Counted from the stretch's first letter, positions 4,556 to 8,800 are shown. The stretch: DNA of 64,000 nucleotides from a virus (UHGV-0060833); one strand, 5' to 3'. A program made the numbers and translations. The notes: generated by a model not told the origin, from the sequence alone.

Positions 4556-6816
4556 AAGAGCTGTGCTATGGATCTGTTTGCAGTGGAATTGAAGCCGCGA
4601 GTATTGCCTGGGAACCGTTGGGTATGCGTCCGGCGTGGTTTGCTGAAATCGAGCCTTTTCCATCTGCCGTTCTTGCGCACCGCTGGCCCCATGTCGCCAA
4701 CCTTGGCGACATGACAAAACTTGCCAAAAAAGTCCTGGCTGGGGAAATCGAATCCCCTGATGTGCTCGTCGGGGGAACACCTTGTCAGGCATTCAGTATC
4801 GCTGGATTACGTGGTGGGCTTGATGATGAGCGTGGCGCGCTAACTTTAAAGTATGTGGAGCTTGCAAATGCAATTGACGACAAACGGGCTGAGTCATTTC
4901 TCAAACCAGCCGTTATCGTCTGGGAAAATGTCCCAGGAGTCTTGTCATCGGCAGATAACGCCTTCGGATGTTTCCTTGCCGGATTGGCTGGAGAAGATGC
5001 GCCATTTGAACCAGGTGATCGACCTGAATCAGGAAAAAGTAACGCGTTCTGGCGGTGGGATGGCAAAACCGGTTGCCATGCTCCAAAGTGGCCGCAGTGT
5101 GGTTGTATTTATGGACCGCAGCGAAAGGTGGCCTGGAGAATCCTTGATGCCCAATACTTCGGAGTGGCACAACGACGCCGACGCGTGTTTGTTGTCGCAA
5201 GTGCTCGAACAGACCTCGATCCCGCAACGGTACTTTTTGAGTTCGAAGGCGTGCGCCGGGATATTGCGCCGAGCCGAAAAAAGAAGGAAATCGCTTCCGC
5301 CATTATTGCAAATGGCGCTGCAATCAGTGGCGAAAGCCTAAATCCATGCCTACATGCTGACATGCCACCCGGTATGAAATCGACGAAAGCCGTAAACGCT
5401 TTCAGGATGGCAGCATTTGGGGAATATATTGACGATGAAACCGCATCGACAGTAAAGGCAAGAGATTTTAAAGATGCCACTGACCTTGCCGTTTTTAGCA
5501 GCACAGGAGCAGCTTTTTGGTCAGAAGGGCATGGTACATTGCGGGCACGTGAGCAAGAAAGCCATGAGCATCTTGTTACATTGGCTTTTCCTGAGCGTAT
5601 GAGCGGTACACAACATGCTGCAACTAAGAATACTTCACCATCTCTAATGGCTAAAAATCCAACAGCTGTTTGCTATGAAGTAAGAAACGCAGAAGTAGCT
5701 GTCCGCCGTCTTACCCCTGTCGAATGTGAAAGGCTGCAAGGTTTTCCTGATGGGCATACGTTGATCCCGACGGAAAAGCGTAAAAAAGTTAGTTCAGATG
5801 AACTGGCATATCTTCGCAATCACTATCCAGATTTAAGCGAAGAAGAGGCCGTGATGCTTGCAGCTGACGGACCGCGTTACAAAGCGATCGGCAATAGTAT
5901 GGCAATACCAGTAATGCGCTGGATTGGCGATCGGATTACTAAGGCCGTATGTCGGCAGAAAGAAGGAAGTGAAACAAAAGAGCGAAAAGTTAAACCAGCG
6001 GCAGAATTCGAACGGTCCATATTCAAATGGGCTGGTGGAAAATTTGGTGTTCTGGAACAAATCTTTCGCTATTTGCCAGAAGGGAAGCGCCTGATTGAAC
6101 CTTTCGTTGGTGGCGGAGCTGTCTTCATGAATGCCGGATACCAGGAAAATCTGCTAAATGATGTGAATGCTGACCTGATTAACTTTTACAAGACTCTGCA
6201 ACGCGAGGCGCATTCACTTATCACTCTGGCACATCGTTTTTTCCTGGACTACAACACCCAGGAGGGATACTTGGCAGTACGGAATGCGTTTAACAAACAA
6301 GTCTATGATGATTTACATCGCGCAGCGGCGTTTTTGTTCCTGAACCGACATTGTTTTAACGGATTGACGCGTTACAACCAGGCCGGTGAGTTCAATGTCG
6401 GTTATGGGAAGTATAAAACTCCGTATTTCCCATTACAGGAGATGGAAGCCTTCCTCGGTGCGGAAGGGCGGTCTGAGTTTGTATGCGGTGATTTTGCAGC
6501 GGTGATTGAAGCTGCCGGAGAAGGAGATGTCATCTTTTGCGATCCGCCGTATGAACCGCTCCCCAATACAGAGGGGTTCACGAACTATTCCGGTCATGAC
6601 TTTAAGTTTGAAGAGCAAAAACGCCTGGTGTCTCTGTTGACGGATGCTCATCGTCGAGGTGCAAAGGTTCTCATTACTAACAGTGGCGCGCCAAACATCA
6701 GAGAGCTTTATCATGACAGTGGCTTCAGAGTGGAACCTCTTTTTGCCAGACGTTCTGTGTCTTGTAAGGGGGACACTCGAGGTGTAGCTCATGACGTTTT
6801 GGGTATATTGCTCTAA
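4552..6816 (+). CDS. dmt: Bifunctional DNA methyltransferase: N-terminal C5-cytosine MTase fused to C-terminal Dam-like N6-adenine MTase
   Basis: N-terminal GGTPCQAFS (PCQ), VIVWENVPG (ENV), [10 protein letters not shown]; C-terminal [10 protein letters not shown] and CDPPYEP (DPPY). 754 aa; start overlaps hrdC stop. Confidence 0.8.
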
Positions 6817-6823
6817 TAAATTA
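6807..6823 (+). promoter_or_regulatory. C1 operator-like site overlapping dmt stop
   Basis: ATTGCTCTAATAAATTA, 16/17 to consensus. Confidence 0.7.
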
Positions 6824-6998
6824 ATTAGTGTAATATCGCCTCAATGAATCGTGATTTATAGAGCGATTTAGCTGTTAGCCGCGACAGGCGCGGCGGTAAG
6901 CATGGCTGGGCCTAGTCCTCCCAGACAAACCACCGAGTTGCCAGGTTGACCATGCGCCTAAGTGGCAACGCCGAAGTGCGTTACGAGCTTCCAGTTTG

Positions 6999-7024
6999 CC
7001 CATCTTCGGGTGGGCGTTTTTTTC
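6999..7024 (+). terminator. Rho-independent terminator
   Basis: GCCCATC-TTCG-GGTGGGC hairpin followed by GTTTTTTT. Confidence 0.6.
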
Positions 7025-7489
7025 AGGGTTTTCGTCATGGTTAGCGACTTTGCGGCGGTTTAGAAACTGACCATTAAAGTAAATGCAAACGATGATCTGA
7101 TGATGGTAGCGGCCTAAGAAACCAGATGCCACGGGGTATGAGTCGTCCCCCGTCAAAAAAATCGACCGCAGAGTGTCCCCGTCTGTGTATTAGGGAACGG
7201 GGAGGCACAACAGGTAAGGGCGCTGGTGTGATTAACCAGATGAACGAGAAGGGGCCATCTGTTGGTCAGCGTCCTTTCCTGTTGCGTTTTCTTTTCAGCG
7301 TAACAGCGGTGCTTAACAGCACTTTGGGTACAGTTCCACGAATTTACGGGTATATCCCGTCATGCTGAAGGCGCTAATCACGCTGGAAGCCAGGGTTGTG
7401 CATCCCCTGTTACCGAATTGCAGCCAGGGCGCGGTGCGCCGAAAAGCATACGGAGGTGGAAGCCCTCGCCGGAGACGTACCCGGCAAGT

Positions 7490-7565
7490 GATGGTGTAGC
7501 TCAGCGTTTAGAGCGGTTGACTATTAATCAACGGGTCGATGGTTCAAATCCATCCACCATCGCCA
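7490..7565 (+). tRNA. tRNA with anticodon loop CUAUUAA (anticodon AUU, nominally Asn)
   Basis: Folded by eye: acceptor GATGGTG/CACCATC, T-loop TTCAAAT, 5-bp anticodon stem GTTGA/TCAAC, encoded CCA. A at position 34 is atypical. Confidence 0.8.
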
Positions 7566-7567
7566 AT

Positions 7568-7643
7568 GCCGGTTTAGCTCAGTTGGTAGAGCGCCTGCCT
7601 TGTAAGCAGGATGTCAGCGGTTCGAGTCCGTTAATCGGCACCA
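7568..7643 (+). tRNA. tRNA-Thr (anticodon UGU)
   Basis: Acceptor GCCGGTT/AATCGGC with one G-U, D-loop AGTTGGTAG, anticodon loop CTTGTAA, T-loop TTCGAGT, encoded CCA; 2 nt after the preceding tRNA. Confidence 0.9.
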
Positions 7644-7651
7644 GCACAACA

Positions 7652-7725
7652 GGTAAGGGTATTTTGCGACGCCGGAGATCGCCGAGCTTGGCAGAGGGTT
7701 CGAATCCCTACGAAGTACCCTTACC
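7652..7725 (+). ncRNA. tRNA-like element: 10-bp acceptor-like stem, D-arm-like hairpin, canonical T-arm, no anticodon arm
   Basis: GGTAAGGGTA pairs TACCCTTACC; AGGG-TTCGAAT-CCCT T-arm; GCGA-CGCCGGAGA-TCGC D-like arm; only ~11 nt where the anticodon arm should be. Confidence 0.3.
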
Positions 7726-7894
7726 GTTGTGATGAAGTGCAGCTCTTTGAAGCAACCAGAAGATAAGCATCTGGCTTCACAACATAAACCGCAGGAACGA
7801 CCAATAAACGGTAGTCCGTATGGAGAACACCCCGTTGAGGAAGAGGCCTGGCCGGAACCGTAACCGGCACTACAACGTTGAGAACACTGGCGTA

Positions 7895-7976
7895 ACGGGG
7901 TCATATCCCAATCTACGAATAAATGTTGCGTTGCAGCGTGACAACCAGTGTTCTCAACATTGTGGTGAATGCACAG
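7895..7976 (+). repeat. Copy 1 of a repeated non-coding element
   Basis: Shares GTAACGGG-T-CATATCCCAATCTAC ... GTTGCG ... GTGAATGC with 8172-8234; embedded in a long inverted repeat (7872-7890 vs 7945-7963). Confidence 0.4.
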
Positions 7977-8171
7977 GCTGATGTGCCGCAACTACAGTAG
8001 TGCGCGCTTTGCGGGGCTTGCTACAACCCTGTGTCGGAGTTCAGCACCGACCATCACAGTTTGATTCTCTGGCATGAGCATAACGCTGAAATAAGTCCAG
8101 TCTGGTGCGGCCCGATCACCCGCCGTTAGCTCCACGAAACGGAGCACGTAACAGGTAAGAGCATTCTCCTG

Positions 8172-8234
8172 TAACGGGTTCATATCCCAATCTACAGGTC
8201 CACCAAGAATGCTCTTTCCGTTGCGGTGAATGCG
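8172..8234 (+). repeat. Copy 2 of the repeated non-coding element
   Basis: AACGGGTTCATATCCCAATCTAC ... GTTGCGGTGAATGCG; no credible ORF across it. Confidence 0.4.
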
Positions 8235-8374
8235 GCTAAGCGCACGCGGGGAAATGGTTATATCTGTCCATTATTTCTCCTTGTTTCCACGTCCACGGTG
8301 GATAACCAGCCAAAGGACACCGGGAGGCACCCGGCACCGCAACCTTATTTCCCAACCAGTAATGAGGTTAATAA

Positions 8375-8800
8375 ATGCTCGGCATTCTCAAAAAGAAATT
8401 CCGCAAAGCGGCTGGCGGAGTCAAGAAGATGGAAAACCGTGATGCGGTGGAAGCGACTGTCTGGGGCGCATATTCCATTGCATACTCTGACGGCACCTGC
8501 GATGCGAAAGAAATTGCAGTATTGGAAAAAACCATTGCAGCACTTCCTGCCTTTGCGCCGTTCTCCGGTGAAATTGCCCAGATGAGCGCCAATATTCGCG
8601 CTCAATATGAAGCCTCGCCGCGCCGAGCGAATGCCCAGGCTTTACGTGAACTGGCTGACGTGTCTGGAACTAATGATGCGGTAGATGTTCTGTGCCTATG
8701 CATTGATATTGCTGACCAGGATGGCATTGGGGCAGAAGATCAGGAGCAATTGAAGAAAATTGCCCAGGCTCTTCAATTGCCACTGGAACAGTATATCTGA
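8375..8800 (+). CDS. TerB-like domain protein (P1 tciA position)
   Basis: 141 aa with TerB-like pattern (AYSIAYSDGTCDAKEIAVLEKTIAAL ... LCLCIDIADQDGIGAEDQEQLKKIA). Confidence 0.6.
   Translation: MLGILKKKFRKAAGGVKKMENRDAVEATVWGAYSIAYSDGTCDAKEIAVLEKTIAALPAFAPFSGEIAQMSANIRAQYEASPRRANAQALRELADVSGTNDAVDVLCLCIDIADQDGIGAEDQEQLKKIAQALQLPLEQYI

Follow-up and report, generated by a model that had tools for sequence, protein, structure and literature searches.

Layout of the ban-operon leader

The window, i.e. the whole 64,000-nucleotide stretch of viral DNA analyzed here, belongs to a P1-type phage-plasmid, with 99.2% identity to P1 over positions 6800–8400 and 100% identity to an E. coli plasmid. The element under study is situated in the C1-controlled ban operon, within the ORF-free leader that the P1 record places between Pban/Oban and tciA; no convincing ORF exists in 6816–8375. 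In P1, the order is Pban/Oban, the 'dicF-like region', trnA and trnT, the element, tciABC, trnI, and ban. ARAGORN and Rfam locate three tRNAs, the Asn and Thr genes listed below and a tRNA with a CAT anticodon at 9075–9150, and the terminator scan yields a sole plus-strand terminator-like site in the leader (6997–7023). SSU5-like phage-plasmids possess an equivalent layout as a stand-alone non-coding RNA unit, which runs from an operator/promoter-like region to an intrinsic terminator. Among complete E. coli genomes, 638 of the 651 matching places lie on plasmids. The features of the leader are as follows:

6997–7023, plus strand: intrinsic terminator, which ends the 'dicF-like' small RNA; the conserved array begins just 3' of it
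7085–7117, plus strand: tag template GCA AAC GAT GAT CTG ATG ATG GTA GCG GCC TAA (ANDDLMMVAA, then stop), in the same transcription unit as the element
7205–7282, plus strand: element 1, a paralogous class-I framed hairpin (repeat search, frame alignment, and folding)
7490–7565, plus strand: tRNA-Asn (ARAGORN/Rfam), anticodon ATT in the window and GTT elsewhere
7568–7643, plus strand: tRNA-Thr(TGT) (ARAGORN/Rfam), the CCA end of which lies 2 nt before the hairpin base
7646–7650, plus strand: 5' strand of the basal helix, ACAAC, the conserved base of all class-I frames, with a compensatory AU/GC change at pair 1-41 of alignment A3
7652–7666, plus strand: 5' strand of the main helix, GGTAAGGGTATTTTG, forming 15 bp with 7711–7725; its inner TATTTTG is the acceptor-like strand beside the T-arm
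7667–7694, plus strand: 5' part of the variable apical interior, an ill-defined 'D-like' hairpin and linker with no anticodon arm, swapped wholesale in types A, C, D, and E
7695–7709, plus strand: T-arm mimic, a match to the tRNA T-arm consensus found in the P1-type interior only
7711–7725, plus strand: 3' strand of the main helix, CGAAGTACCCTTACC, comprising the acceptor-like 7-nt CGAAGTA, then C, CC, then TTACC
7726–7730, plus strand: 3' strand of the basal helix, GTTGT, which doubles as the first bases of the next conserved module
7726–7783, plus strand: conserved module GTTGTG...CACAAC (GTTGTGATGAAGTGCAGCTCTTTGAAGCAACCAGAAGATAAGCATCTGGCTTCACAAC), directly 3' of the hairpin
7868–7967, plus strand: class-II framed hairpin CACAAC-GTTGAG...CTCAAC-ATTGTG (inverted repeat; -47.9 kcal/mol)
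8150–8226, plus strand: element 3, a paralogous class-I framed hairpin, with GGG-TTCATAT-CCC and CAGGTCC-A-CCA in its interior

Related arrays differ widely in their tRNA genes (Asn or Arg, optional Tyr, Thr, and optional Ser). The anticodon of tRNA-Asn at 7523–7525 on the plus strand reads ATT in the window and GTT in the other 95 copies of related arrays, a G34-to-A change that leaves the remainder of the tRNA intact. In one P1-like contig (L009 4085–4161, minus strand), tRNA-Arg(TCT) replaces tRNA-Asn on an unchanged acceptor/T-arm backbone, an apparent anticodon-arm swap. P7, D6, and the SSU5-like arrays carry an extra tRNA-Ser(UGA) of 87 nt (L004 2788–2874, L003 2607–2693, and L005 3019–3105), whose best Rfam match is tRNA-Sec at 46.6 bits against a gathering threshold of 47, suggesting an unusual long-acceptor architecture.

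The 'dicF-like region' of P1 (6931–7023, plus strand) has no Rfam DicF match even at E <= 10, though it ends in a strong terminator. Just upstream of tciA, an STnc100-like segment occupies 8222–8341 on the plus strand (41.9 bits against a gathering threshold of 47, E = 4e-7); STnc100 is reported to be related to the PasD small RNAs of Stx-type prophages (bioRxiv 10.64898/2026.05.13.724894). Many P1-like relatives, including Ro157, JL22, and RCS47, contain an insertion of approximately 170–195 bp (L002 2664–2834) with a small annotated ORF, inserted at a point equivalent to window position ~7868, between two framed hairpins. Meanwhile, 7718–7783 is 95.5% identical in Klebsiella SSU5-like phage-plasmids, which otherwise have little in common with the window. 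The module at 7726–7783 is not notably structured (z = -0.7) and is thus conserved as sequence, possibly as a small-RNA seed or a protein site.

A covarying plus-strand helix with an exchangeable interior

The first-pass annotation described the element as ten base pairs of perfect acceptor-like pairing that enclose a D-arm-like hairpin and a canonical T-arm, without an anticodon arm and just after the tRNA pair. The sequence check and the inverted-repeat search locate both strings of that pairing, GGTAAGGGTA (7652–7661) and its complement TACCCTTACC (7716–7725), and the helix is in fact longer. It consists of 15 bp (7652–7666 with 7711–7725) including two G.U pairs, followed by the bulged A7651 and a 5-bp base, ACAAC/GTTGT (7646–7650 with 7726–7730), which begins 2 nt 3' of the tRNA-Thr CCA. 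Folded as RNA, the hairpin reaches -38.5 kcal/mol (z = -4.7 to -5.0), and none of 200 shuffled sequences is as stable.

The T-arm mimic AGGG-TTCGAAT-CCCT is present as described, at 7695–7709, closed by a G7694.A7710 mismatch and directly adjoining the innermost 7 bp (TATTTTG/CGAAGTA) of the long helix. In its 3' half, the element thereby matches tRNA geometry exactly: a T-stem strand of 5 (4 bp plus the G.A mismatch), a loop of 7 (TTCGAAT), a T-stem strand of 5, a 7-nt strand paired to TATTTTG, C at position N73, and CC. The 5' half shows no such likeness, and the 3' side ends in C-CC-T where a tRNA would have N-CCA. The absence of an anticodon arm is borne out by the distance from the inner 7-bp helix to the T-stem, which is 27 nt compared with approximately 41 nt in tRNA; no 5-bp stem with a 7-nt loop can be found within this gap. 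The D-arm-like hairpin is not robust, as alternative pairings compete with it, and the SNPs found in relatives, few as they are, disrupt either one pairing or another. In one of the 48 type-B copies (11 distinct sequences), the T-loop reads TTTGAAT instead of TTCGAAT. A relaxed T-arm pattern has about 5 chance occurrences per 64 kb on both strands; it is unremarkable genome-wide, yet unexpected within a given hairpin interior of ~50 nt (roughly 0.002).

The helix belongs to a family of framed hairpins. The frame motif AACAGGTAAGnGnnTT has three copies in the window (7209, 7648, and 8150), compared with 0.08 expected, all situated within the leader and each opening a hairpin of 18–20 bp. The frame helix thus recurs three times in the leader and is also found in SSU5-like phage-plasmids. 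Viral contigs were scanned using the conserved 3' arm and the downstream module as an anchor, yielding 120 loci in which the slot holds five interior types in one conserved frame:

Interior A: P7 type, 66 nt, about 50 copies
Interior B: P1 type (the element studied), 85 nt, about 44 copies
Interior C: E. coli SSU5-like, 87 nt, 12 copies
Interior D: Klebsiella SSU5-like, 92 nt, about 19 copies
Interior E: rare, 85 nt, 3 copies

The five types, compared with each other, have no significant similarity. A homology between the P1-type and the Klebsiella-type interiors, plausible by eye, was dropped (z = 1.4). The TTCGAAT T-arm is confined to the P1 type; types A, C, and D have no canonical T-arm, and type E possesses a different T-loop-like hairpin, TAGAG-TTCGACT-CTCTA. 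In the case of P7 and Ro157, a shorter and different interior without a T-arm occupies the matching frame and position, and the inner stem contains compensatory changes.

When 20 distinct frames are aligned by their stems only, 91.7% of the cells are paired, compared with 38–55% when the partner strand is slid. Changes on both sides of a pair occur in 7 of the 18 pairs, and 0 of 500 shuffles reach the observed values. Simultaneously, G.U pairs outnumber A.C pairs in the stems by 88 to 2, and hence the helix folds as plus-strand RNA; the plus-strand fold is the more stable one in three of four hairpins. Selection has thus acted on the helix as a plus-strand RNA structure, which has the orientation of the tRNAs. 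Furthermore, the sequence of its base (ACAAC/GTTGT and GGTAAG/CTTACC) is conserved across paralogs beyond the needs of pairing.

The position of the hairpin is equally regular. In all distinct contexts from 109 oriented arrays (30/30), the run-ending tRNA (Thr, Asn, or the SSU5-type Ser) is followed 0–2 nt past its CCA by a hairpin of 18–25 bp. An 11-bp stem lies flush behind trnI, and an irregular hairpin, under-scored by a simple hairpin finder, lies behind the tRNA-Ser of P7 and D6. None of the post-tRNA hairpins in these contexts is a terminator. For the element itself, a terminator was considered and rejected, given that no T-run follows the hairpin and no terminator-like site occurs in 7646–7740. 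A minimal Buttiauxella array has no slot altogether, which indicates that the hairpin is dispensable for the conserved core.

A proposed spacer hairpin of the tRNA transcript

The element can be classed with a known kind of RNA, the structured spacers of tRNA operons, and has an exchangeable tip. Since every terminal tRNA examined is followed by such a hairpin, a processing or insulating spacer hairpin is the best reading of the element, and, of the options raised by the first-pass annotation, a processing handle of the tRNA transcript is the best supported. It is also the most economical reading; the helix is conserved and fixed in position, and the interior is interchangeable. The proposal that the element serves as such a hairpin in a precursor of tRNA, small RNA, and mRNA, with the apical part as a passenger, is given about an even chance of being correct. 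The duplex has the proportions of an RNase III-type substrate, i.e. approximately 20 bp, nearly uninterrupted, between functional RNAs, here as 15 + 5 bp with one bulged A between tRNA-Thr and the downstream module, and with 18–25 bp in the paralogs.

In the proposed mechanism, the framed hairpins (ACAAC, a stem of 13–15 bp, a variable tip, the return stem, and GTTGT) would punctuate the tRNA/small-RNA array, with the ~20-bp helix formed 2 nt past the tRNA-Thr CCA as the functional part. A host endoribonuclease would recognize and cut this helix. The likeliest candidate is RNase III acting within the duplex, with RNase E at the helix base as the alternative; the choice of nuclease is a guess, and the over-conserved base sequence could mean a sequence-specific partner instead of RNase III. 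The cut would free the tRNA 3' end for trimming, and the downstream RNA, including the conserved module, the further hairpins, and tciABC-trnI-ban, would keep a hairpin-protected end that may stabilize it. The apical 45–50 nt would act as a swappable passenger, which in the P1 type may be the relic of a tRNA-like minihelix, with a 7-bp helix stacked on the T-arm.

Stems cut by RNase III are familiar from rRNA operons and from the early transcripts of T7 and lambda. Like such processed spacer hairpins, the element forms a long, near-perfect duplex between functional RNAs of one transcript, starts 0–2 nt past a tRNA CCA, and combines a conserved helix with a free loop; its cleavage is presumed by analogy. 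Unlike them, it is not a terminator, and it has a base sequence conserved across paralogs and an apical domain exchanged as a cassette. One report on E. coli proline tRNAs describes a CCA-flush hairpin that is removed by RNase E (PMC5291269).

Other viruses also join tRNA genes to structured RNAs. Species 1 and 2 of T4 (rnaC/rnaD) are stable non-tRNA RNAs of a phage tRNA cluster, and the TMERs of murine gammaherpesvirus 68 are tRNA-linked hairpin RNAs released by tRNA-processing enzymes. In these cases, as in the P1 leader, viral tRNA or tRNA-like genes are fused directly to structured hairpin RNAs, but the sequences and hosts are unrelated.

Some observations fit a neutral passenger less well. 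T-loop-like hairpins occur in two unrelated interiors (types B and E), and similar GGGkTCATATCCC hairpins occur in two other framed hairpins; a purely neutral passenger leaves both unexplained. An unlikely alternative deserves mention beside the spacer hairpin, namely a spacer-derived regulatory small RNA or sponge, in which the frame would be a stabilizing and processing scaffold and the variable tip the effector, through base-pairing or Hfq/ProQ, diversified by cassette exchange in an arms race. Five unrelated interiors in one conserved frame would suit such a role. A precedent comes from E. coli, where the 3'ETS of leuZ and similar tRNA spacers serve as sponges. The neighborhood is also rich in small-RNA-like features, i.e. 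the DicF-like RNA with its terminator and the STnc100/PasD-like segment (41.9 bits), and prophage small RNAs cluster with tRNAs (bioRxiv 10.64898/2026.05.13.724894). The prophage small RNAs STnc100/PasD, AgvB, and AsxR of that report share the near-tRNA habitat, and the leader holds an STnc100-like segment; however, the element itself matches none of these families in the Rfam search. The interiors are short and largely self-paired, and no target, seed, or binding motif was identified in them.

tRNA likeness, the tag template, and the remaining readings

The element as a whole is not a tRNA, and a tRNA-like reading applies only to its apical 3' half. An Rfam search of 7646–7731 gives no tRNA (RF00005) match at the gathering threshold (29 bits) or at E <= 10. 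ARAGORN makes no call on the element at the 100% or 90% thresholds, and at 80% it returns only an implausible 95-nt 'tRNA-Tyr' that borrows part of tRNA-Thr. The tRNA detectors, the Infernal/Rfam check proposed at the outset and ARAGORN in addition, thus do not recognize a tRNA here. Of the tRNA hallmarks, the T-arm with a TTCRANY loop is present (4 bp with the G.A closing mismatch); the 7-bp acceptor with N73-CCA is not, as the helix runs 13 bp further and its 3' side reads C-CCT. No parent tRNA emerges either: in BLAST of the interior against phages, the tRNA likeness ends at the T-arm consensus of ~20 nt (E = 0.5–6), and among the tRNAs of the array the best match is 13/29, with none plausible. 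A tRNA-like relic or a captured minihelix, not a working tRNA, is the best description of the P1-type interior.

The tag template at 7085–7117 is tmRNA-like and unannotated in P1. It is preceded by UAAAU, with an upstream core at ~7023–7084 and a hairpin at ~7128–7152. Sub-threshold Rfam tmRNA matches are found at the start of the array, covering 7012–7155 overall and the tag region only, with the permuted tmRNA model at 7012–7117 (24.1 bits, E = 0.006), and similar ones occur in SSU5-like loci. Every array, P1-like or SSU5-like, contains a tag template, always of 10 codons and a stop, with the variants ANDNLMMVAA, ANDDLMMAAA, ANEEVYLAVA, ANDNQYLAVA, ANEDSYLAVA, and ANEDTYLAVA. In the SSU5-like tags, all three changes in the YLAVA codons are synonymous third-position changes (TAT/TAC, GCA/GCT, and GCC/GCT), codons 3–5 vary freely, and there is no conserved start codon; 3' of the stop, at the place of helix 5 in a tmRNA, is a hairpin with one compensatory pair.

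A tRNA-like domain (TLD) belonging to the tag was sought in several ways. ARAGORN in tRNA, tmRNA, and permuted modes at 90%, 80%, and 70% makes no call that uses the real tag, and its low-threshold calls are noise. Similarly, a blastn-short comparison of the arrays with ssrA of E. coli K-12 returns only 8–11-nt words, i.e. noise. RNAalifold on 12 SSU5-like units lends no support to a TLD-like closure; the long-range pairs are invariant columns and are not conserved in P1. A literature search, the scope of which lay outside the P1 genome paper (Lobocka 2004), found no account of the framed hairpins or of a tmRNA-like region in P1. An exhaustive ssrA survey records no phage tmRNAs outside mycobacteriophages and Bacillus phage G and does not list P1, and it describes a TLD-only RNA in mycobacteriophage DS6A, for which SmpB titration was proposed (PMC4131195).

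The interior of element 3 (8164–8207, plus strand) reads GGG-TTCATAT-CCC ... CAGGTCC-A-CCA and resembles the 3' end of E. coli ssrA (GGGTTCAACTCCCGC-CAGCTCC-A-CCA), with U70, A73, and CCA retained. It is found in 66 of 127 loci, is partly deleted in Ro157, and is replaced by a tRNA-Ser module in P7 and D6. A 'giant tmRNA', in which the 5' segment GGGTTTT...GGTTAGCGAC...TTTGCG at 7023 pairs with CAGGTCC-A-CCA of element 3, was entertained on the grounds of colinearity with ssrA by eye. It remains speculation, as P7, D6, and Ro157 lack all or part of element 3, and covariation is not available.

Against this background, the excised P1-type interior could be a functional mimic of a tRNA or of the tmRNA TLD, i.e. 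a minihelix with affinity for tRNA/tmRNA factors (SmpB, TruB/TrmA, RNase P, EF-Tu, or the CCA-adding enzyme) that serves as a decoy or as the partner of the tag template 570 nt upstream; this reading is rather improbable. Its anatomy equals that of the tRNA-like domain of tmRNA, with an acceptor-type helix stacked on a canonical T-arm and no anticodon arm, and the C at N73 followed by CC could be completed to CCA. As in tmRNA and the TLD-only RNA of DS6A (PMC4131195), the structure is phage-borne, and its operon also holds a conserved tmRNA-type tag ORF, with no TLD detectable for it. Unlike those RNAs, it lacks G3.U70 (the inner helix has U3.G70, and the outer register U3-A70), has C instead of A73 as the discriminator, and does not encode CCA; tmRNA models (Rfam clan CL00001 and ARAGORN -m) do not recognize it, with no Rfam tmRNA or tRNA match over the element at E <= 10 and none from ARAGORN in tmRNA mode. 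It is also embedded in a 20-bp frame, whose additional 13 bp make a poor RNase P geometry, and some related arrays retain the tag but not the element. The tag ORF is no less conserved beside interiors A, C, and D, which have no canonical T-arm, and in the slotless Buttiauxella array, and the rare type E offers only a T-loop-like hairpin. The element and the tag belong to one operon with two tRNAs between them, RNAalifold supports no long-range pairing, and some tag arrays lack the element; a functional link between the two is possible but unsupported. The first-pass suggestion of a tRNA-mimic regulatory RNA is an unsupported possibility for the element.

A broader version is a long shot: the P1-like ban leader and the SSU5-like stand-alone array would be one unrecognized tmRNA-derived non-coding RNA system, comprising the conserved tag template, nested tRNAs, and modular framed hairpins, with the P1-type element as a working tRNA-like module. 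The tag in that case would be defined by its 10 codons, its AN(D/E) start, and its conserved hydrophobic C-terminus (YLAVA in SSU5-like and MM(V/A)AA in P1-like arrays). If true, the element would be a non-canonical tag partner or a decoy for SmpB or tRNA-arm factors, and the phage would re-program or block ribosome rescue.

There is little to recommend a plain dead tRNA pseudogene that lost its anticodon arm and drifts with no functional part. The T-arm consensus, the adjacent 7-bp helix, and the location in a tRNA cluster of variable content among relatives are what such a relic would leave, and the 3' half retains tRNA geometry. However, an anticodon arm, a convincing D-arm, CCA, a score with RF00005, and an identifiable parent (13/29 at best in the array, the T-arm consensus elsewhere) are all missing; the helix has 20 bp instead of 7, and the outer helix is under selection, with covariation across paralogs and unrelated interiors and a conserved tRNA-flush position. 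The degenerate tRNA first proposed is supported only in part, by the tRNA geometry of the 3' half; the 5' half has no tRNA likeness, CCA and a tRNA call are missing, no parent is identifiable, and the supposed acceptor stem is the generic frame.

It is very improbable that the hairpin acts at the DNA level as a single-strand initiation site, a recombination site, or a cruciform; perfect long inverted repeats do adjoin a helicase operon, and G.T is also tolerated in single-stranded DNA, but the hairpins are co-oriented and flush with tRNAs inside a transcription unit of small-RNA and tRNA genes, and the SSU5-like copies are bracketed by a promoter-like region and a terminator.

The weakest reading, scarcely credible, makes the element part of the protein-coding gene plp ('putative lipoprotein'; minus strand, 7614–7991), which the P1 GenBank and RefSeq records annotate here together with upl, yet this frame uses a TTG start, overlaps tRNA-Thr by 30 nt, has no Pfam match, varies from 43 to 156 aa as an open frame over the slot among relatives with interior-type length differences of 19, 2, and 7 nt, is no gene in the P7 record or in the RefSeq PGAP annotation of hundreds of plasmids, and lies opposite the strand favored by the base-pair covariation and the G.U bias. 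Both plp (7614–7991, minus strand) and upl (7992–8183, minus strand) overlie covarying plus-strand RNA hairpins. The comparison with the P1 plp/upl region thus turns against the annotation, as plp looks spurious with its unconserved ORF and its overlap with tRNA-Thr, and the stems covary in the relatives, so that the region does not behave as coding sequence with unconserved stems. In all likelihood, the two P1-record entries do not represent genes.

The annotation of phage P1, which dates back 20 years, is thereby corrected, with structured RNA lying under plp and upl. A conserved, modular hairpin family is also defined, which follows each run of tRNAs in two groups of phage-plasmids that are unrelated to each other and common in the clinic. 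The components of the P1 ban operon (the DicF-like RNA, the tRNAs, TciABC, and the Ban helicase) may depend on the processing of these hairpins, and the slot with its exchangeable cassettes offers a handle on the rebuilding of phage tRNA arrays. Experimental effort would be better directed at the surrounding array, with its orphan tmRNA-like tag, than at the T-arm; if the tag template is functional, it would give phages a novel means of interfering with ribosome rescue.
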